NCBI GenBank assembly: GCA_001784055.1
Contig: MFOZ01000003.1
Coordinates: 1 to 40,269 of the forward strand
Origin: Candidatus Levybacteria bacterium RIFCSPLOWO2_01_FULL_42_15
GTDB lineage: Bacteria > Patescibacteriota > Microgenomatia > Levybacterales > UBA12049
Reading direction: 5' to 3'
Length of the DNA: 40,269 bases
Of the stretch, positions 21,954-32,138 are shown piece after piece. Each line of letters starts with the position of its first letter. The stretch's first letter is position 1. The position numbers and the translations under genes are program-made. The notes beneath the pieces were generated by a model. That model was not told the origin of the DNA. It saw only the letters and a program-made list of their open reading frames with translations, and did not search any database.

Positions 21954-22631
21954 TTATTCAAGGGCAAGGTGCTCGATCTCCTTTAAGGTTCGTTGGTAGT
22001 CTGCTTGATCAAAGACAAATGTTTTGTAGCTTTCAGCATTTTTAAAAAAACCCAAGAGAAGAGATTTATTAACAAATCCATCCCCCTTTGATATATATTC
22101 AGAGAAGGAGGACCATCGATAATATTCAAGTCTATCAATATCCTTTATCACATGGGAAGCATAAGGATTGAGGTGAATATATCTTGAAACATGAATAAGT
22201 TGTTCATCTGTCTCAATTCTGACCGCCTTAAACTGGTTCAGGAATAATGTGCCGTCCCTTTGATGTCTTGTATTGAAATAACGAGTATAACTGTTTTGAA
22301 AATTACTTAAAAACTTCGAAATTCCGCCGTCCATATTCTGTTTTATAAGTAAATGAAAATGATTCGGCATGAAACACCAGCAAAAGATATCGATATTTGT
22401 ATCACCTGCATTCAAAACCCTAAGAAGCTCTGTTCTTTTTTCGTTGCCAAGAGTTAAGAATCTAGAGAGCCTCACTGGAAGCTTTTTGAATCTATAAAAC
22501 TTTATGGATTCCAAAGCTCTGGTAAGTTCTCTTTTTGTAGTAAACGTAGGTTGCCTGTTGGCCCCTCGATTAAAAACATGGTATATCTCGTTTGTAATAA
22601 GCGGAACAATTCTTCCTGGCATTATGCTCAT
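21954..22631 (-). CDS. REP-associated tyrosine transposase (RAYT; IS200/IS605 TnpA-like HUH enzyme)
   Basis: FCWCFMPNHFHLLIKQ (HUH motif HFH) and VSRYIHLNPY (catalytic Tyr in the Y-x-H-x-NP context). The track start at 22658 is a TTG inside the repeat. The in-frame ATGs are at 22631 and 22622; the latter fits a leaderless start from the promoter at 22658..22630. Confidence 0.85.
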   Translation of the reverse strand: MSIMPGRIVPLITNEIYHVFNRGANRQPTFTTKRELTRALESIKFYRFKKLPVRLSRFLTLGNEKRTELLRVLNAGDTNIDIFCWCFMPNHFHLLIKQNMDGGISKFLSNFQNSYTRYFNTRHQRDGTLFLNQFKAVRIETDEQLIHVSRYIHLNPYASHVIKDIDRLEYYRWSSFSEYISKGDGFVNKSLLLGFFKNAESYKTFVFDQADYQRTLKEIEHLALE

Positions 22632-22658
22632 AATATCTAACGTTACCCTAGGTGTCAA
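22630..22658 (-). promoter_or_regulatory. RAYT promoter TTGACA-N17-TATTAT, with the -35 embedded in REP copy B
   Basis: On the minus strand, TTGACA (22658..22653), an exact 17-nt spacer, then TATTAT (22635..22630). The ATG at 22622 begins 8 nt after the -10. Confidence 0.5.
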
Positions 22659-22713: not shown

Positions 22714-22742
22714 TTGACAAGAGTTGGCAGTCGTGTTATTAT
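22714..22742 (+). promoter_or_regulatory. hrcA operon promoter TTGACA-N17-TATTAT
   Basis: TTGACA at 22714..22719, an exact 17-nt spacer, TATTAT at 22737..22742. It lies 10 nt before the ATG at 22753. Confidence 0.7.
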
Positions 22743-22750
22743 AGTGCTAA
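22724..22750 (+). promoter_or_regulatory. CIRCE-like HrcA operator (TTGGCAGTC-N9-TAGTGCTAA) overlapping the hrcA promoter
   Basis: The left arm matches the CIRCE consensus TTAGCACTC-N9-GAGTGCTAA at 7/9 positions and the right arm at 8/9, with an exact 9-nt spacer. It overlaps the -10 box and the predicted transcription start. Confidence 0.55.
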
Positions 22751-22752
22751 TC

Positions 22753-23487
22753 ATGCAAGATTTAACACAACGACAGATTCATGTATTGAAGAACCTCATT
22801 GAGGAATATATAGATACCGCGCTTCCCGTGGGGTCTGAAACGCTTGAGAAAAAACACAATTTAAGCGCATCCCCCGCAACTATAAGAAACGAAATGGTTC
22901 GATTAACAAAGTTAGGGTATCTCAAAAAAACCCACACCTCCTCCGGACGAGTTCCGACCCCTTCCGCTATGAAGTTTTATGTCAGTCAGCTTATGAAGGA
23001 AAAGGAATTATCAGTGGTTGAGGAGGTAGCGGTAAAGGAGCAGTTGTGGGACTGTAGGAGCAAAAAGCATGATTTCATGAAAAAGCTCACAAAAACTCTT
23101 GCAGAAAGAACAAAGGCGCTTGCCGTAACTGTTGCGGATGATGATATGCTTTATACTTCTGGATACGCGAATATTCTGGAGATGCCTGAATTTTATGACA
23201 TTGATATCACCAAAAACTTACTGTCCGTCATTGACGAGCTTGATTACTTTGAGAACCTATTCGCACGCATCGCTTTTGATCAAGAAAGGACGCATATACT
23301 GTTAGGAGAAGAGCTCGGACCCAGACTTCCTCCTCAGTACGGTTTTATATTTACCCAATACGAGACGCCTGAGCATGGTCACGGAACGATTGGCGTGTTA
23401 GGACCGGTGCGGCTTCATTACACATCGATTGTGCCCATCGTACGATACTTTGGAAATCTTGCAGGAGAAATTGCGCGAGAATGGTAG
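22753..23487 (+). CDS. hrcA: Heat-inducible transcription repressor HrcA (short, 244 aa)
   Basis: MQDLTQRQIHVLKNLIEEYIDTALPVGSETLEKKHNLSASPATIRNEMVRLTKLGYLKKTHTSSGRVPT is the HrcA winged-helix N-terminus. I reject the upstream part of the track ORF (22504..22752) because it overlaps the RAYT gene and the promoter. Confidence 0.9.
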   Translation: MQDLTQRQIHVLKNLIEEYIDTALPVGSETLEKKHNLSASPATIRNEMVRLTKLGYLKKTHTSSGRVPTPSAMKFYVSQLMKEKELSVVEEVAVKEQLWDCRSKKHDFMKKLTKTLAERTKALAVTVADDDMLYTSGYANILEMPEFYDIDITKNLLSVIDELDYFENLFARIAFDQERTHILLGEELGPRLPPQYGFIFTQYETPEHGHGTIGVLGPVRLHYTSIVPIVRYFGNLAGEIAREW

Positions 23488-23495
23488 GAGAAGGC

Positions 23496-23960
23496 ATGAA
23501 AAAGCAAACCAGTCTTAAAGTAAAACAGGAAGAAAAGAAACAGGAAGATGTGCGGTATGAAGTACTTGAACATCAACTTAAGAGAGCGCTTGCGGATTAT
23601 CAAAACCTTGATAAGCGGTCAAAAGAAGAAAAGGGAGAATGGATCAGAAGCGCAAGCAAGGATCTCTTATTGAGACTTCTGCCCGTTTTAGATACACTTA
23701 TGATGGCGTCTCAGCATTCAGCAGATGAGAATCTAAAAGTGGCTCTTCTTCAATTTCAGGAAGTACTAGCGTTAGAAAGAGTAGTTCTTATTCAAACACG
23801 AGGAAAAGAATTTAATCCTGCTACAATGGAATGTATTGTAACGGAGGAAGGAGAAGAAGGAAAAGTAATTGGAGAACTGCGCCCGGGATATATGCTCTAT
23901 GAAAGCGTTTTGCGCCCCGCCCAAGTAAAGGTGGGAAAAAAGATAGCGACTAATTACTAA
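23496..23960 (+). CDS. grpE: Nucleotide exchange factor GrpE
   Basis: [15 protein letters not shown]...LLPVLDTL... and a C-terminal beta-domain ([16 protein letters not shown]). The ATG at 23496 is preceded by GGAGAAGG. An alternative ATG at 23481 overlaps the hrcA stop. Confidence 0.9.
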
Positions 23961-23967
23961 AACAACT

Positions 23968-25860
23968 ATGGCAAAAATTATTGGAATTGATTTAGGGACA
24001 ACAAACTCATGCGTTGCGGTAATGGAGGGTGGATCTCCAAAAGTTATCCATTCAGCCGAAGGTCGCAATGTAATTCCATCGGTAGTAGATCCGATCTCTC
24101 ATGTGGTGGGCGATGTGGCAAAACGCCAGCTTGTCCTTAAACCCAAACGCACGATCTATTCTATTAAGAGGCTCATGGGGAAAAAGTTTTCTGATGCATC
24201 GGTACAAAAAGATGCAAAGCTTCTTCCGTATACCGTTAAATCGGCAAGAGATAATATGGTAATTGTGGAGGTTGAGGGGAGAACATTCACTCCGCAAGAA
24301 ATCTCCGCAATGATTCTTCAGAAAGCAAAGGCAGATGCAGAAAGCTACCTGGGAGAGAAAATAACCCAGGCGGTAGTTACCGTTCCTGCGTATTTTGATG
24401 ATTCGCAAAGACAGGCGACAAAACAAGCGGGGGAGATTGCCGGACTTGAAGTGTTACGAATCATCAACGAGCCAACCGCGGCAGCACTTGCGTATGGACT
24501 TGACAAGAAAAACACCCACACGATTGCCGTATATGATTTAGGAGGGGGAACGTTTGACATCTCTATTCTTGAGTTGGGAGAAGGAGTATATGAGGTAAAA
24601 TCAACAAATGGGGATACGCATTTGGGTGGAGACGATTTCGACCAGCGCATTATTAATTACCTTGCGGATGAGTTTAAAAAGGAGCATGGGATAGATCTTC
24701 GCCGCGATCCTCAAGCCCTTCAGCGGCTTAAAGAATCCGCAGAAAAAGCAAAGATAGAGCTTTCCTCATCTTCCGAGGCTCAAATAAATCAGCCTTTTAT
24801 TACCCAGGGTAAAGAGGGTCCTCTTCACTTAACCATGAGTTTAAGCCGCGCCAAGCTGGAACAGCTGGTTGATGATCTTGTGCAGGGAACCATAAAGCCG
24901 GTTGAATTGGCTTTGAAAGACGCCAAAATGAAGGCCTCAGACGTGGATGAGGTGGTTTTGGTTGGTGGAATGACAAGAATGCCAAAGATTGTGGAGACGG
25001 TTACCAAATTCTTTGGAAAAGAGGCAAATAAATCCGTAAATCCGGATGAGGTAGTTGCTGTAGGAGCAGCAATTCAAGCAGGTGTTCTGGGCGGAGAGGT
25101 CAAAGACGTTCTTCTTCTGGACGTAACTCCGCTCACTCTTGGCATTGAAACGTTAGGAAGCGTTGCTACTCCTCTTATTCCTCGCAACACAACGATTCCC
25201 AGTTCCCGTTCTCAAGTATTCTCAACGGCGGCGGATAATCAAACGCAGGTTGAGATTAACGTGCTCCAAGGAGAACGGGCTATGGCGACAGACAATAAAT
25301 CACTGGGGAGATTTGTTTTGGACGGCATTCCTCCTGCTCCCCGTGGAGTCCCGCAAGTTGAGGTGACGTTTGACATAGACGCAAACGGGATCTTGAATGT
25401 AAAAGCACAAGATAAAGCAACCGGAAAAGAGCAAAGTATTCACATAACCGGTTCAACCGGTCTTACCAAAGAAGAAGTTGACCGCATGACAAAAGAGGCG
25501 GAAGCTCATGCAAAAGATGACGAAGAGAAAAAGGGAAAGGTAGAGGCTCGAAATAGCGCGGATTCTCTTATCTTTACCGCGGAAAAATCCCTTAAAGATG
25601 CGGGTGATAAAGTTGATCAGGCTCTGGTAAAAGAAGTAGAAGAGAAAACAACATCTCTTAAAGCAGTACTTGATACGGGAACAAAAGAGGACTTGGAAGC
25701 AAAAACAAAAGATCTTTCGGATAGTCTTCAGAAGATTGGTCAAGTAATGGCACAAAATCAACCTCAAGAAGGTCAAAAGACAGAGGAGCAAAAAAAACCA
25801 AATGGCGCAAAAAAGAATACGTCAAAAGAGGAACCAATAGAAGGAGAAGTAGTAAACTAA
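23968..25860 (+). CDS. dnaK: Molecular chaperone DnaK (Hsp70)
   Basis: [22 protein letters not shown] and [10 protein letters not shown], plus the EEVD-less acidic/Lys-rich tail. 630 aa. Confidence 0.98.
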
Positions 25861-25891: not shown

Positions 25892-25912
25892 CCGCGTCAA
25901 ACGCGGCTTTTT
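25892..25912 (+). terminator. Weak intrinsic terminator/attenuator between dnaK and dnaJ
   Basis: CCGCG-tcaaa-CGCGG stem-loop followed by CTTTTT. A TATAAT hexamer follows at 25915..25920, and GGAGA lies before the dnaJ ATG. Confidence 0.45.
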
Positions 25913-25931: not shown

Positions 25932-26819
25932 ATGGCACAGGAAAAAGATTATTATGAAACCTTAGAAGTCACAAAAGCAGCATCGCTTGATGAGGTTAAA
26001 AAAGCGTATAGAAAACTTGCGCTACAGTATCATCCTGACAGAAATAAAACAAAAGAGGCAGACATAAAGTTTAAGGAAATAAACAAAGCCTATGAGGTGT
26101 TGTCGGATTCTCAAAAGCGGCAAGCATACGATCAATTTGGGCATACGGCTTTTGAACAAGGGGCTTCCGGCAGCGGACCATTTGGAGGATTTGATTCATC
26201 TCAAAGCGGTCGTTATGGCCCTTTTAGCTACACGTATACCACGGGAGATACACAAGGATCTGACTTTGGTGGATTTTCTGACCCTTTTGAAATCTTTGAG
26301 CAGTTCTTTGGAGGCGCGTCTCCTTTTGGTTCTGCGAGACGTCGGCCTGTTTATTCGATACGAATTGCTTTTACAGAGGCAGTACAAGGTGTTCAGAAGC
26401 GAGTGGAAATAGATGGCAAGATACAAACCATCAAAATTCCACCGGGAGTTGATAATGGTTCGCGTATCAGGTTTGGAGAGTACGACGTGGTGGTAGAAGT
26501 TGAGTCCCATCCTCATTTTCAGCGTGAAGGGTATGATGTAGTAAGTGAGACAAAAATCTCCTTTTTTGAGGCTATCTTGGGAACAGAAGCGATGATTGAG
26601 GCAGTGCAAGGAGAAATTGCGATTCGTATTCCTGCGGGAACCCAGCCCAACGCGGTTATTCGGCTAAGAGGAAAAGGGATACCGCATCTGAGAGGTGGAG
26701 GATATGGAGACCATTATATCCGCATCAAAGTCATCATTCCCAAACACCTCACCGGAAAACAAAAGCAGCTTCTTGAGGAGTTTAAGAATGAAAAAAGCCG
26801 CAAAAACGGCTGGTTCTAA
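25932..26819 (+). CDS. dnaJ: J-domain co-chaperone (DnaJ/CbpA-like, class II, no zinc-finger domain)
   Basis: YYETLEV...[14 protein letters not shown] (HPD motif), a G/F-rich region and C-terminal substrate-binding domains. The 295-aa translation contains no cysteine at all. Confidence 0.9.
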
Positions 26820-26861: not shown

Positions 26862-27194
26862 ATGCCTGCCTTTGCGGTATGGATTCCCATCCAATTTTTT
26901 CTCTTTTGGTTCATAGAGGCTCCCAAAGGATTAATTCTCTATTTTGTATCGCTGAATAAGGCGGTTAGCAAGCTTCTTTCTCTTGGGTTATTCCTAGGGA
27001 CTTTCTTTAAACCATTAAAGAATGAATACCGATCAGGTCTTGTTGGATTTTCAATCCTCATGGGGGTAGTGGTTAAATCTATTCTGATTACTGCTGATCT
27101 TTTAATTCTTCTATCTTTTGTTGCGATTGAGGCTGTCTTTGTGATCTTGTTTATTGGTTTTCCTATTGTTCTTATTCGCATGCTGTTTCCTTGA
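26862..27194 (+). CDS. Small polytopic membrane protein (hypothetical)
   Basis: 110 aa, about 3 hydrophobic helices, ATG start. It ends 3 nt before the Clp-like gene. Confidence 0.5.
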   Translation: MPAFAVWIPIQFFLFWFIEAPKGLILYFVSLNKAVSKLLSLGLFLGTFFKPLKNEYRSGLVGFSILMGVVVKSILITADLLILLSFVAIEAVFVILFIGFPIVLIRMLFP

Positions 27195-27197
27195 ATC

Positions 27198-29570
27198 ATG
27201 GAATCCTACGTACGTTTTTATTTGTGGTATACGTCTTTTTCTTGCAGGCTTGTTCGGCTTGGAATCTTATTTGTCCTCTTTGTGCTATCGCTGATTGGAG
27301 GATTACTATCTTCCTTCTTTCTGTTTCTTTTGGGAATCCTTGCTATGTTTGAAGTATTTTTTAAGTTTCACATCGCATCCATTCACCCCAGAATCCCCGT
27401 TTCCTCCAAAGGAGTAGACCCTTTTGAGTCTTTTACAAAAGAGGCTTTGCTTGGGGTTCTTGAGATTTCCTCTCAAAAAAATTTTATTGCTCGGATTTTT
27501 GAGGTAGAGGCAGTAAAACAATTTGCGCGCATGATTGGAATTACACAAAAAGAGTGTATTGGAATGGTAGAAAAAGATGATTTAGTTGCCAAGAGCATAG
27601 AACTAGTGAGTTTTCGTAACGGACTGTTTGTAACCTCTCTTGATGTGTTTGCCGCATACCTTCTCTTAACGGAGGATTCTACAAAACTTCTTGCCCATAA
27701 AGAACTATCTCCCAATGACTGTCTCAATCTTCTTCGTCTTATCGCATCCATACCTTCTTTTGAAGAGAAGCCTACGAAGAAACGGGTGGCGTTCAAGGGT
27801 GAAGGAATCGGAGAGGAATTGGTAAATGGTTGGACGCTCTATACAAAACAATACACAAAGGATACAACCGCGCTTGCAATGAGGAAATTTCCTCTTCTTG
27901 TGGGAAGGGAGGAAGAATTTAGAGTAATGTGTGAGATTCTTTCAAAAAAAGAGAATAACAATGTGCTCCTTGTAGGAGATGCGGGAGTTGGTAAAGATGC
28001 GCTGGTTGAAGCGCTTGCATACAAAAGTCACTTAGGAGTACTTTCTAAAGGGTTGAACCACAAACGGATACGAGAATTATTGGTAGGAACTCTTATTGCG
28101 GGAGCCTTACCAAAAGACGTGGAAGAGCGACTTGACAACATTATCCAAGAGGTTTCTCATGCGGGAAATATCATTGTGTATATTCCCGAGTTTCAAAACG
28201 TAATAGGGCCATCTCATATCGACGTTTCCTCAACCTTTCTCCCTTACTTAAAAGACGGAAAACTTCCTATGATCGCAAGTATGACTCCTGTTCTTTATAA
28301 ACAGTACAAAGAGCGTTTTTCCTCTTTGATGGATGCGTTTGGAACCGTAATTCTTGAAGAGCCAGATGAAGAGAAGGCGCTATTCATGCTATTTCATAAC
28401 GCACAATTTCTTAATGAATCCTATCACTTAAGCACGTCCTATAATGCCCTTAAGGTATCCATTGAATATGGCAGAAAATATGCGTTAGAAACAAAGCTTC
28501 CGGGCGCTTCGGTATATTTACTAGAAGATACCATGCAGATGGTATCAATGGCTTCAAAACAAAAAGACAGTATTTTGGTTCAAAAAGAAGACGTGATAAA
28601 AAAAGTAGAGGAGCGTATCCACGTGCCGATTGACAAACCGCTCCCGCAGGAAAAAGAACTCCTCCTGCATTTAGAAGATAAGCTGCATGAGAGAATTATT
28701 AATCAAAATCACGCGATTGCAACAATCGCCCAAGGACTAAGGAGGATTCGAGCTGGACTAAATCCTTCTTACAAACCCGTTTCTTTTTTATTTTTAGGGC
28801 CAACGGGTGTTGGTAAAACCGAGACCGCAAAGGCTCTTGCCGACCTGTATTTTAAGGGAGAAAGGTTTCTCCTCCGTTTGGATATGAGCGAGTATCAAGA
28901 AACAGATGCGCTGGGACGGCTTCTTGGATCTTCTTCTAGCGAGGGGGATAATCGCGGAGAGTTAACCGAGCATATTCGGGATCATCCTTTTTCTCTTATC
29001 CTGTTGGATGAATTTGAAAAAGCAGACTCTCATGTCCTTGATGTGTTCTTGCAGGTCCTAGACGATGGCCGTCTTACCGATGCATCTGGGCGAACTGCAT
29101 CGTTTGGGAACTCAATCATTATTGCAACGTCCAATGCGGGATCCGAATTTATTCGAGAAGAATTGGAAGCAAACCAGAAAATCGATGATGTGTTTAAGAA
29201 AAAACTCCTTGATTATTTGCAAAGAAAAGGGATTTTTAAGCCGGAACTTCTCAATCGATTTGACGATATCGTGATCTTTGAATCACTGGGGAGTAAAGAA
29301 GTTAAAGAAGTAGTAAAGCTGTTGGTTAAGAAAGTAGAAAAAGTTCTTGAGAAGCATCAACTATCGCTTGTCATAGGAGATGGGGTGTTTGAAAAAGTTG
29401 CACAAGAAGGATATGATCCTCAGCTTGGCGCGCGGCCTCTTATGCGCTATATCCAAAATACGATTGAGGAGCCGATTGCTCAAAAAATCCTTCTTGGAGA
29501 TATAAAAAATGGACAGCGGATCTTGGTAACGCTTACCCCTTCCGGCTCTTTTACCCTCCATCCCCAATAG
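27198..29570 (+). CDS. Membrane-anchored Clp/Hsp100-family double-AAA+ protein with a degenerate first module
   Basis: N-terminal TM hairpin (LVRLGILFVLFVLSLIGGLLSSFFLFLLGILAMF), then Clp-N-like repeats. In D1, Walker A reads GDAGVGKD and Walker B reads IVYIPEF. D2 is canonical: GPTGVGKT, LILLDEFEKA, VLDDGRLTD. Confidence 0.9.
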   Translation: MESYVRFYLWYTSFSCRLVRLGILFVLFVLSLIGGLLSSFFLFLLGILAMFEVFFKFHIASIHPRIPVSSKGVDPFESFTKEALLGVLEISSQKNFIARIFEVEAVKQFARMIGITQKECIGMVEKDDLVAKSIELVSFRNGLFVTSLDVFAAYLLLTEDSTKLLAHKELSPNDCLNLLRLIASIPSFEEKPTKKRVAFKGEGIGEELVNGWTLYTKQYTKDTTALAMRKFPLLVGREEEFRVMCEILSKKENNNVLLVGDAGVGKDALVEALAYKSHLGVLSKGLNHKRIRELLVGTLIAGALPKDVEERLDNIIQEVSHAGNIIVYIPEFQNVIGPSHIDVSSTFLPYLKDGKLPMIASMTPVLYKQYKERFSSLMDAFGTVILEEPDEEKALFMLFHNAQFLNESYHLSTSYNALKVSIEYGRKYALETKLPGASVYLLEDTMQMVSMASKQKDSILVQKEDVIKKVEERIHVPIDKPLPQEKELLLHLEDKLHERIINQNHAIATIAQGLRRIRAGLNPSYKPVSFLFLGPTGVGKTETAKALADLYFKGERFLLRLDMSEYQETDALGRLLGSSSSEGDNRGELTEHIRDHPFSLILLDEFEKADSHVLDVFLQVLDDGRLTDASGRTASFGNSIIIATSNAGSEFIREELEANQKIDDVFKKKLLDYLQRKGIFKPELLNRFDDIVIFESLGSKEVKEVVKLLVKKVEKVLEKHQLSLVIGDGVFEKVAQEGYDPQLGARPLMRYIQNTIEEPIAQKILLGDIKNGQRILVTLTPSGSFTLHPQ

Positions 29571-30650: not shown

Positions 30651-32138
30651 ATGGGTAACATTAAAAAACAACAAGAGATTCATACGAACCAAAACAAAGA
30701 GATACCGCCGGTCATTGCCGTTTTAGGACATGTTGACCATGGAAAAACGTCTCTTCTTGACGTAATTCGGAAAACCAACATTGCGCAGAAAGAACATGGC
30801 GGTATTACTCAAAAAATTGGCACCTCGGCAATTGAGGTCAAGAGTGAGGGAAAAAGACGCAAAATTACCTTTATTGATACGCCCGGACATGAAGCGTTTG
30901 CGCTTATGAGAAAAAGAGGCGTTGCTGCTTGCGATATTAGTCTTTTGATAGTGTCCGCAAATGATGGGGTGATGCCTCAAACTAAAGAAGCGATTGCCCA
31001 CATCCTTTCATCCAAGCTTCCCTTCATTGTGGTGATAACAAAATCTGATCTTCCTGAGTCCTCTCCCCAAAAAGTTATTCAACAGCTTGCAAAAGAGGGA
31101 GTGTTGGTAGACAGAAGCGGGGGCAACATTCCAGTTATTGAAGTATCAGCAAAAACAGGACATCACATAAAAGAACTTTTAGATCTTATTCTTTTGGTGT
31201 GGGACATGCATGAGAGAGAATCCTTGGGCGATAGTGGATTTAAAGGCATTATTATTGAATCCAGGAGAGATGCTGCGGTTGGTGCGGTTGCCAGTGTTAT
31301 TATAAAAAATGGAACGATTCGTCCAAGAGATACTATTTATTGGAAAGGCGGGAGTTGTCGTATAAGAGGACTTATTAATGATCAAGGAAAGCAAATAACA
31401 TCTGCACACATTGGCGAAGGGGTTGAGATATTAGGTTTTGAGACGTGCCCATCGGTAGGAGAAATCATTGGATTCAGCCCACCGCTTATAGAAAACGTAG
31501 TACAACAGAAAACATCCTCTGTTAGTGCAGAAGAGCATGCAAAAAAAAGTCTTTTTGGAAAAAAACAAGAAGAGCAACGTCTTGCGGTTATCCTGTGTGC
31601 GGATACAGAGGGGTCCCTTGAGGTAATCAAAGCATTGCTTCCTCCCGCTGTCTTTTTTGTCCTTGCGAAAACGGGAGAGATATCGAAAACGGATATCTTG
31701 CTTGCCAAATCATCTGCAGCAATTATCATAGGGTTTAATGCGGTTATACGAAATGACGCTTTGCATCTTGCTCGTATTGAAAAAGTGCTGGTAAAGAATT
31801 ATGCAATTATGCATGAGCTTATTAAAGAGATGCAAGAAGCGATTGAAGGAAAAGAGCTTGCTATGGAAGAGCAAATTCTTGGCGTGTCAGCTGTTCTTGC
31901 CCGCTTTCCTTTTGAAAAAACGTTTGTATTGGGACTTCGCGTTAATGAAGGGAGAGTTGCCAAGGGTGATAAGGTACGCCTTGTACGAGGAGATGAAACT
32001 GTTGGAGAAAGCGTTATTACATCAATTCGCCAAGGAAAGGATTCCACCTCAAAGATTGAAAAAGGAAAAGAGTGCGGTATTATTATCTCTCCTTTTCTTG
32101 ACTTTACTATAGGGGATATGTTATTATGCCATAATTGA
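30651..32138 (+). CDS. infB: Translation initiation factor IF-2, minimal form
   Basis: PPVIAVLGHVDHGKTSLLD begins about 18 residues from the N-terminus. DTPGHEAF and TKSD are also present. 495 aa. TGA stop. Confidence 0.93.
   Translation: MGNIKKQQEIHTNQNKEIPPVIAVLGHVDHGKTSLLDVIRKTNIAQKEHGGITQKIGTSAIEVKSEGKRRKITFIDTPGHEAFALMRKRGVAACDISLLIVSANDGVMPQTKEAIAHILSSKLPFIVVITKSDLPESSPQKVIQQLAKEGVLVDRSGGNIPVIEVSAKTGHHIKELLDLILLVWDMHERESLGDSGFKGIIIESRRDAAVGAVASVIIKNGTIRPRDTIYWKGGSCRIRGLINDQGKQITSAHIGEGVEILGFETCPSVGEIIGFSPPLIENVVQQKTSSVSAEEHAKKSLFGKKQEEQRLAVILCADTEGSLEVIKALLPPAVFFVLAKTGEISKTDILLAKSSAAIIIGFNAVIRNDALHLARIEKVLVKNYAIMHELIKEMQEAIEGKELAMEEQILGVSAVLARFPFEKTFVLGLRVNEGRVAKGDKVRLVRGDETVGESVITSIRQGKDSTSKIEKGKECGIIISPFLDFTIGDMLLCHN

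Follow-up and report, generated by a model that had tools for sequence, protein, structure and literature searches.

A Clp-like ATPase gene and its small upstream neighbour

The window, that is, the whole stretch of 40,269 nucleotides (nt) analysed here, covers positions 1 to 40,269 of contig MFOZ01000003.1 from Candidatus Levybacteria bacterium RIFCSPLOWO2_01_FULL_42_15. It contains a gene for a Clp/Hsp100-like ATPase of 790 amino acids (aa), whose start lies 3 nt past the stop codon of a gene encoding a 110-aa membrane protein, hereafter the partner. An earlier note, made from the letters of the DNA alone, had described the ATPase as a membrane-anchored Clp-like protein with a dead first ATPase ring, and it is this protein, its partner and their family that are analysed below. 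The two genes and the domains of their products are as follows.

26862..27194, + strand: partner gene, encoding a 110-aa membrane protein predicted to fold into two long helices (residues 3-38 and 61-108) that form a hairpin (AlphaFold, conservation)
27003..27053, + strand: invariant basic loop of the partner, FFKPLKNEYRSGLVGFS, predicted to be cytoplasmic (29-sequence alignment, count of lysine plus arginine, K+R)
27198..29570, + strand: Clp/Hsp100-like ATPase gene, 790 aa (open reading frame (ORF), Pfam, NCBIfam, HMMER)
27237..27374, + strand: N-terminal transmembrane (TM) helical hairpin of the ATPase, residues 14-59, ending in a conserved EVFF+FKI motif and predicted N-in/C-in (hydropathy, AlphaFold, K+R)
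27420..27746, + strand: probable divergent Clp_N-type helical N-domain, residues ~75-183, with eight helices in the model (AlphaFold, hhalign)
27753..27902, + strand: linker between the N-domain and the first AAA+ module, residues 186-235, family motif GEGIGE..V.GWT.ETKKYT (family alignment)
27903..28577, + strand: first AAA+ module (D1), catalytically degenerate (motif alignment, family counts)
28578..29567, + strand: second AAA+ module (D2) plus D2-small domain, catalytic residues intact (Pfam, family counts)

Pfam detected AAA_2 (4e-45), ClpB_D2-small (6e-21) and AAA_lid_9 (1.8e-4) in the ATPase, together with P-loop matches at residues 234-302. The top NCBIfam models were ClpB, ClpA, ClpK, ClpV and ClpG, all far under their curated cut-offs: the protein scored 444.5 bits against a cut-off of 1232.1 for the ClpB equivalog TIGR03346 and 360.9 against 1417 for NF008118, 396.8 against 993.15 for the ClpA equivalog TIGR02639, and 353.4 against 884.95 for the ClpV/TssH equivalog TIGR03345. 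The ClpB model of NCBIfam matched in two pieces, and the best sequence match in the PDB was Thermus thermophilus ClpB (HMMER). The AlphaFold2 model, built with a 100-sequence alignment, reached a predicted local distance difference test score (pLDDT) of 88 and a predicted template modelling score of 0.75, and consists of the TM hairpin, the eight-helix N-domain, the linker and two AAA+ modules. Foldseek superposed the AAA body on protomers of ClpC, ClpC1 and ClpB with a template modelling score of ~0.88 and a root-mean-square deviation of ~3.4 Å, and the alignments with full-length ClpC reached 776-828 columns. By these comparisons the protein is best placed as a member of the two-tier (class-I) Clp/Hsp100 AAA+ superfamily.

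Among 5.8 billion proteins searched, at least 120 homologues of the ATPase were found, 40-49% identical and ~785-805 aa long, and those with an organism name were from Levybacteria, Woesebacteria or Patescibacteria. Database names for them are generic, of the form "ATP-dependent Clp protease ATP-binding subunit ClpC/ClpA". All family column counts given below were taken from a MAFFT alignment of 120 homologues plus Escherichia coli ClpB and ClpA; a second, independent sample comprised 67 Clp-like ATPase proteins from species-representative genomes, and the HMMER comparison used the solved chains of T. thermophilus ClpB and Staphylococcus aureus ClpC. The representative of the 90%-identity cluster, P0001, differs from the window protein only at residue 360 (28275..28277), which is Ala in the window and Val in P0001.

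The two N-terminal hydrophobic helices that the earlier note had proposed were recovered both by hydropathy and in the AlphaFold model, where they span residues 14-32 and 36-59, and by hydropathy the hairpin is kept in the full-length family members. On average across the family, 3.2 K+R residues precede the hairpin and 4.1 follow it; positive charge on both flanks points to an N-in/C-in topology, with the ATPase in the cytoplasm. The Clp-N-like repeats that had been claimed after the helices are not visible to Pfam, which gave no Clp_N match in four isolated N-domains of the family, even at E<=1. They are recovered by profile-profile comparison, in which the family N-domain and the canonical Clp_N profile aligned over 85 columns with 93% hhalign probability and E=3e-7, a reversed control giving 0.2%. 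This result was obtained after adding 23 lineage-matched canonical N-domains, a two-sequence Clp_N alignment having given a probability of 20%. The comparison supports the reading of the N-domain as a divergent Clp_N.

D1 is catalytically degenerate, whereas D2 is intact

The motifs of the two modules were located by alignment.

27975..27998, + strand: D1 Walker A, GDAGVGKD, Lys retained and Thr replaced by Asp
28098..28133, + strand: D1 pore loop, AGALPKDVEERL, without Tyr
28098..28118, + strand: core of the D1 pore loop, AGALPKD, where the canonical sequence is AGAKYRG
28173..28193, + strand: D1 Walker B, IVYIPEF, Asp replaced by Pro
28326..28340, + strand: LMDAF, in which MDAF replaces the ERRF of D1
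28797..28820, + strand: D2 Walker A, GPTGVGKT
28926..28958, + strand: D2 pore-loop-1, GSSSSEGDNRG, two residues shorter than GAPPGYVGYEEGG and without an aromatic residue
28995..29024, + strand: D2 Walker B, LILLDEFEKA
29124..29141, + strand: D2 sensor-1, ATSNAG, with the sensor-1 Asn
29250..29264, + strand: D2 arginine finger, LNRFD
29427..29441, + strand: D2 sensor-2, GARPL

These placements largely reproduce those of the earlier note, with which HMMER, the MAFFT alignment with E. coli ClpB and ClpA and the separate 67-protein set all agree. Its D1 Walker A, including the Thr-to-Asp change, is upheld by the alignment, as are the pore loop without Tyr and the replacement of ERRF by MDAF. For Walker B of D1 it had the Asp-to-Pro change right and the coordinates (28170..28190) one codon too early.

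In D1, the P-loop glycines are invariant among the homologues, and the Walker-A Lys position is K in 108/120 and R in the remaining 12/120. The adjoining Thr position is mostly Glu or Asp, and 35 of the 120 have Thr. The Walker-B Asp was found in none of the 120 homologues, 108 of which have Pro instead. Arginine fingers are likewise missing, Arg occurring in 0/120 and the ERRF position reading [ED][VA], and the pore-loop Tyr (0/120) gives way to Asn or Asp. Because the P-loop glycines are invariant and the Lys position is K or R throughout, D1 would be better termed non-hydrolysing, and possibly still nucleotide-binding, than dead, as the earlier note had it; its broader proposal of a membrane-tethered ATPase with effectively one working ring, and perhaps a new role, is supported by the sequences.

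The note had also called D2 intact from a single sequence, and the family bears this out: Walker A and B, sensor-1, the arginine finger and sensor-2 are kept in 119-120/120 homologues, and the finger, R687, in 120/120. D2 is 39% identical to D2 of E. coli ClpB. The shortening of its pore loop is also a family feature. The consensus reads GAPPGEGxE[RK]G, with a short conserved acidic motif, PGEGxE[RK]G, in place of Tyr-Val; an aromatic residue is absent in 119/120, and where Tyr is expected 75 homologues have E and 16 have Q. Conserved residues of the loop are G581, G583, E585, R/K586 and G587. The residues of the D2' loop (EKH in ClpB) map to poorly conserved positions of the family.

The M-domain of ClpB couples to DnaK, and a loop of the IGF type docks ClpP. 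Neither element was found. Residues 401-520 of T. thermophilus ClpB were unmatched in the HMMER comparison, in which residue 458 of the ATPase runs into 460, and a ClpP-docking tripeptide, [ILVM]G[FLIM], was found between D2 sensor-1 and the arginine finger in 0/120 homologues, the IGL of E. coli ClpA aligning to a gap or to a ClpB-like segment of the family. The earlier note had reported both absences. That of the M-domain does not set the ATPase apart, because the canonical Clp protein of the same lineage (described below) is also without it; most copies of the canonical protein are without an IGF/VGF (ClpP) loop as well.

The same D1 losses together with an intact D2 were also seen in the 67 species-level proteins, mostly from Levybacteria. 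As identical substitutions recur in the 120 homologues and in these 67 proteins, the motif losses are best read as selected family traits and not as the decay of one genome. Every sequence-level premise of the earlier claim that the protein is neither a conventional threading disaggregase nor a ClpP partner thus holds family-wide, which argues for that claim.

Selection was estimated as the ratio of nonsynonymous to synonymous substitution rates (dN/dS) from the closest pairs only; at 62-90% identity dS was saturated (~2), and those pairs were set aside. Across the regions of the ATPase, dN/dS was 0.03-0.11, with lower values in the linker, which indicates purifying selection. D2 gave 0.03-0.11 and D1 a close 0.04-0.09, suggesting that the non-catalytic D1 is kept by selection. 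With 0.01-0.05 in most close pairs, the linker is among the most constrained segments of the protein: E190, G211 and W212 are invariant, and G201, G203, T213, E215, T216 and Y219 are conserved at >=90%. It is also the segment with the lowest model confidence, pLDDT falling to 58-65 around residues 190-210. Strong constraint with low model confidence is a pattern typical of a binding site that would become ordered only within a complex.

The small membrane protein is an obligate companion of the ATPase

One genome from each of 185,579 species was scanned with the partner alignment as the query, and relatives of the partner turned up in 185 genomes. All locus counts given here refer to the 80 loci returned from these genomes, in which the informative organism names are nearly all Levybacteria, with one Woykebacteria. 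The Clp-like gene comes directly after the partner gene in 78/80 loci, and the remaining two stop at a contig edge. The commonest junction between the two genes is a 4-nt overlap (28/74). In four loci, the partner and the ATPase form a single fused ORF (L011 5983..8601, L026 1508..3970, L047 5998..8454 and L084 5980..8108), and two further fusions of the partner::ATPase type, P0083 and P0097, come from metagenomes, making at least six natural fusions altogether. When 1.84 billion cluster representatives were searched exhaustively with HMMER, no more than 52 relatives of the partner came up, all of 44-152 aa and without any other architecture. All these observations indicate that the partner, which the earlier note had listed as a small gene in passing, is not a mere neighbour: judging from gene order and fusions, it is an obligate and sometimes fused companion of the Clp-like ATPase, typically translationally coupled to it, and it is the most informative clue to the function of the ATPase.

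The partner gave no match in Pfam, NCBIfam or PADLOC, and Foldseek against the PDB returned no match to its fold with E<1. Its AlphaFold model (pLDDT 90) consists of two very long helices joined by the invariant loop, which is the segment with the lowest pLDDT in the model. In the alignment of 29 sequences, the loop motif is KPLKNEYRxGLVGFS, where P51, L52, K53, N54, E55, Y56, R57, G59, L60, V61, G62, F63, S64 and I65 are invariant. Within the membrane, the conserved residues are K72, D79 and E90. On account of its positive charge (mean K+R 3.1), the loop is predicted to be cytoplasmic, on the same side of the membrane as the ATPase, which agrees with the four fused loci, where one extra TM helix stands between partner and ATPase.

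ORFs homologous to the partner were found at the same place in three distant loci, and two of them had been missed by gene callers. The uncalled ORFs in the public predictions are L003 7616..7993 and L005 7668..7997; in L003, an opposite-strand ORF of 69 aa was called instead. The partner family is therefore likely under-annotated.

Distribution of the family and its canonical paralogue

Taken together, the homologues form a strictly conserved family of Clp/Hsp100 paralogues that is centred on Levybacteria, ultra-small bacteria within the candidate phyla radiation (CPR)/Patescibacteria. Full-text literature searching found no description of this family; as the coverage of such searching is incomplete, an earlier description is possible.

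About 30 third-party loci from metagenome-assembled genomes (within L015-L080) are titled "uncultured Gammaproteobacteria" and show Levybacteria-type gene order and proteins. Four more loci, titled Sulfotelmatobacter, Methylomirabilota, Limnocylindrales or Acidiferrales, also have the Levybacteria-type gene order and proteins. Because their gene order and proteins match those of the named Levybacteria loci, "uncultured Gammaproteobacteria" appears to be a placeholder name, and the organism titles of such loci look unreliable.

A canonical Clp protein with GYVG, ERRF and two Walker B motifs is encoded within 6 kb in 30/80 loci, among L008-L087; further examples are L005 3050..5632 (860 aa) and L003 3223..7506. 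It is the closest relative of the Clp-like ATPase among the proteins compared, aligning with it contiguously over D1 and D2 at ~40% identity. Pfam detects a Clp_N domain in it, and it has neither a TM hairpin nor a small partner. The Clp-like ATPase is thus a specialised paralogue, probably derived by duplication from the lineage's own Clp, and, since the canonical protein is encoded nearby in many of the same genomes, it is an added specialist and not a replacement.

Three further features of the canonical protein were observed. Its D1 pore loop, AGASHRGEFEERL, has His at the expected Tyr. It carries a low-complexity N-extension of ~60 aa and, in some genomes, very long C-terminal extensions, up to 1513 aa. 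It also falls under every NCBIfam equivalog cut-off (ClpB 872-887 against 1232).

The chaperone cluster and neighbouring genes

Upstream of the partner and the ATPase in the window lies a chaperone cluster with the following features.

22714..22742, + strand: strong sigma-70-like promoter, TTGACA-17-TATTAT, with an extended -10 and 11/12 matches (promoter scan)
22724..22750, + strand: degenerate controlling inverted repeat of chaperone expression (CIRCE), with 3 mismatches, overlapping the promoter and just before hrcA (pattern scan)
22753, + strand: likely ATG of hrcA (gene identified by Pfam)
23481..23960, + strand: grpE (Pfam)
23968..25860, + strand: dnaK (Pfam)
25892..25906: terminator-like hairpin between dnaK and dnaJ, with a 6-bp stem, 5 G-C pairs and a T-rich tail (scan)
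25932..26819, + strand: dnaJ, 295 aa, J domain and C-terminal domain (Pfam)

The earlier note had placed the ATPase gene in a CIRCE-controlled cluster. The element is present (1 match to the CIRCE pattern was found against 0.01 expected by chance), though in the degenerate form listed above. Co-regulation of the partner and the ATPase with the heat-shock operon is plausible from this arrangement. The hairpin after dnaK could uncouple the genes for dnaJ, the partner and the ATPase from the CIRCE-controlled promoter, or weaken their transcription from it.

The -10 box of hrcA is inside the CIRCE-like repeat, and the ATG at 22753 lies only ~10 nt past the -10 hexamer. Given this short distance, the hrcA mRNA may have little or no leader. 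For hrcA, the mechanical ORF call, which starts at 22504, is probably 83 codons too long. The product of dnaJ, the only DnaJ of the operon, has no cysteine-rich zinc finger and no cysteine at all, and is class-B/CbpA-like. An IS200-like Y1 transposase ORF (21954..22658, - strand; Y1_Tnp, 5e-10) is divergent beside the hrcA promoter.

Among the 80 loci, nusA-infB is kept downstream in 54/80. The upstream neighbours are grpE-dnaK-dnaJ in ~33/80 loci and the canonical Clp ATPase in 30/80. The infB of the window (30651..32138) encodes 495 aa with the GTPase and C-terminal domains and without the long N-terminal region, and its counterparts in related loci are 476-506 aa long. The other window genes are housekeeping genes, namely pilO, rpsT, murJ, lepA, groEL, metG, tatD, pnp, RNase J and ftsK. 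No genes of a type VI secretion system were found in the window or in the 80 related loci.

Comparison with known systems

In ClpB, the translocating chain is held by Tyr251 and Tyr653/Val654, and the Y653A mutation has a severe effect (PMC6546751). Like ClpB/Hsp104 (TIGR03346), the Clp-like ATPase has an N-domain, D1, D2 and D2-small, has no ClpP loop in D2 and lies adjacent to dnaK/dnaJ. Unlike ClpB, it lacks the M-domain coiled coil and equivalents of Tyr251 and Tyr653, its D1 is predicted to be non-hydrolysing, and it has a membrane anchor and an obligate membrane partner. Like ClpA, ClpC and ClpE it probably has a Clp_N-type N-domain; as in ClpA, its D1 is contiguous with D2 without a long M-domain, and ClpC and ClpC1 protomers are its best structural matches; it differs from them in having no IGF/IGL/VGF loop and no pore aromatics, a degenerate D1 and the membrane anchor.

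Torsins, which are related to Clp/HSP100, associate with membranes, rely on membrane cofactors and have no aromatic pore loops, and they were judged unlikely to thread substrates processively (PMC5425593). The Clp-like ATPase resembles the eukaryotic Torsin and LAP1/LULL1 system of the endoplasmic reticulum and nuclear envelope in its Clp-related body, the absence of aromatic pore loops, an N-terminal hydrophobic anchor and a dedicated membrane-spanning cofactor. However, Torsin has a single AAA module, with the arginine finger supplied by the AAA-like domain of the cofactor, whereas the Clp-like ATPase is two-tier and has its own D2 finger R687, and its partner is a 110-aa helical hairpin without an AAA fold. 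The likeness is one of analogy, with no detectable homology past the shared Clp D2 ancestry.

FtsH and Msp1/ATAD1 also anchor an AAA+ ring by N-terminal TM segments on the cytoplasmic face, and membrane-protein quality control is a plausible common theme. They belong, however, to the classical AAA clade, with a single ring, aromatic pore loops and proven threading or extraction. FtsH has, in addition, an M41 zinc protease domain; Pfam found no Peptidase_M41 match in the protein described here, whose ATPase is Clp-type. Plant SMAX1/D53, to which there is a weak PDB match (9kkx_D, 5e-11), similarly has a double Clp-ATPase-like body, repurposed to a non-chaperone role; unlike the Clp-like ATPase, whose D2 is catalytically intact, these are nuclear co-repressors, and they have no membrane anchor.

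Possible function of the ATPase and its partner

The reading that we prefer, and to which we give an even chance, is that of a non-classical membrane-bound remodelling ATPase, driven by D2 and working with a dedicated membrane cofactor, Torsin-cofactor-like in logic. The protein would form a hexameric double ring held on the cytoplasmic face of the membrane, with D1 as a non-hydrolysing structural or assembly tier and D2 as the only motor. It would have no role as a processive general disaggregase or as an unfoldase for a protease, since it has neither the aromatic paddles of the pore nor the M-domain that couples to DnaK nor a ClpP loop. ATP cycling by D2 may instead act on a dedicated membrane-embedded target, of which the best candidate would be the partner itself or clients presented by it. 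The basic loop of the partner may be engaged by the acidic D2 pore or by the constrained linker between the N-domain and D1, which are candidate contact sites. Given the fixed position beside hrcA-grpE-dnaK-dnaJ or a canonical clp, the role would probably be in membrane or envelope proteostasis.

A more specific form of this proposal is tentative, and we consider it somewhat unlikely. In it, the two proteins would be an obligate two-component membrane machine without a described precedent in bacteria. An Hsp100-derived double ring would have traded its aromatic paddles for the conserved acidic pore, and hydrolysis by D2 alone would pull or reshape the basic loop of the partner, driving gating, insertion or extraction, or envelope remodelling.

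Several points weigh against a D2-driven remodelling ATPase of this kind. The hexamer, the lining of the pore and the contact with the partner are extrapolated from homology to ClpB and ClpC, the models being monomeric, and the pairing of an acidic pore with a basic loop is pure inference. Loss of the aromatics does not strictly exclude translocation via other contacts. D2 keeps its own arginine finger, unlike Torsin, so that the active site is complete without a cofactor. The P0083 and P0097 fusions insert no TM helix, which does not fit the predicted cytoplasmic loop, and their junctions differ by one helix from those of the other four; the fusion junctions would thereby imply opposite positions of the partner C-terminus, unless its 48-residue second helix adopts different membrane arrangements. 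Finally, the link to heat shock is one of adjacency only: the CIRCE has 3 mismatches, the terminator-like hairpin follows dnaK, and the upstream neighbour is clp, not dnaKJ, in 30/80 loci.

The main rival is that the protein still translocates polypeptides, as a membrane-protein extractase or unfoldase like Msp1/ATAD1 or a protease-less FtsH, using polar or acidic pore loops. The small protein would then be a membrane adaptor or anchor, and Lon, FtsH or the canonical Clp would take over the extracted clients. D2, as a fully competent Clp-type motor with invariant arginine finger and sensors, would suit such a task, as would the membrane tether and the probable Clp_N-type substrate or adaptor domain. 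The conservation of the D2 pore loop (PGEGxE[RK]G) suggests contact with something, and the gene is set among proteostasis genes, with lon downstream in L005 and L006. However, all known Clp/Hsp100 translocases need the aromatic-hydrophobic pore motif (PMC6546751), which is absent here in 119/120 homologues, in a loop two residues shorter; in addition, the KYR clamp of D1 is lost and the D2' loop positions are poorly conserved. We regard an extractase as unlikely.

Quite unlikely, in our estimate, is that the ATPase acts as a nucleotide-dependent regulator or gate of the partner, for example of a channel made of oligomerised hairpins, without mechanical remodelling. The obligate gene pairing and the natural fusions would fit such a gate, as would the form of the partner, a long two-helix hairpin with the conserved intramembrane K72, D79 and E90, for which no other context is known. 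Yet a full Clp double-ring body with D2-small and a probable Clp_N domain under strong purifying selection exceeds what a simple switch would need, and there was no sign of channel formation by the partner and no structural analogue of it in the Foldseek search.

It is very improbable that the ATPase is a paralogue without function and in decay, or that it belongs to a mobile anti-phage or conflict system. The lost catalytic residues of D1 and the IS200-like transposase ORF ~4.5 kb upstream could be taken in that sense, as could domain-level PADLOC matches, in which only D2 (residues 484-650, 116 bits) hits DolB (Dodola) and PDC-M37B. Decay was rejected on the dN/dS values of 0.03-0.11 and the invariant D2 catalytic residues, and a defence role because these matches extend no further than the generic AAA_2 domain and PADLOC finds nothing for the partner. 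The fixed synteny between chaperone genes and nusA-infB across 185 species genomes is, moreover, the pattern of a core gene, not of a defence island. Neither a patchy, island-like occurrence flanked by mobile elements nor a relaxation of selection was seen. Scarcely credible, lastly, is a conventional ClpB/ClpC/ClpA-type chaperone with mis-aligned motifs: the generic ClpC/ClpA database names and an overall fold that fits ClpC and ClpB would suit it, whereas many of the same genomes encode a truly canonical copy close by, the scores are far under the equivalog cut-offs, and mis-alignment was rejected because three independent alignments concur (HMMER against PDB chains, MAFFT and the 67-protein set).

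Meaning for the family and the lineage

Clp/Hsp100 proteins are the textbook threaders with aromatic pore loops, and the family described here is a natural experiment on an Hsp100 ring without the threading paddles, which the current databases mislabel as "ATP-dependent Clp protease ATP-binding subunit ClpC/ClpA". If the obligate two-component machine is true, prokaryotes would have a functional equivalent of the Torsin-cofactor systems, and Clp/Hsp100 would gain a mechanistic class. The two genes offer a tractable bacterial analogue for the still unresolved Torsin-type AAA+ mechanism. New here is also a conserved family of small proteins that gene callers often miss. Together, the ATPase and its partner would be a lineage-specific addition to what little is understood of membrane and proteostasis biology in CPR/Patescibacteria.

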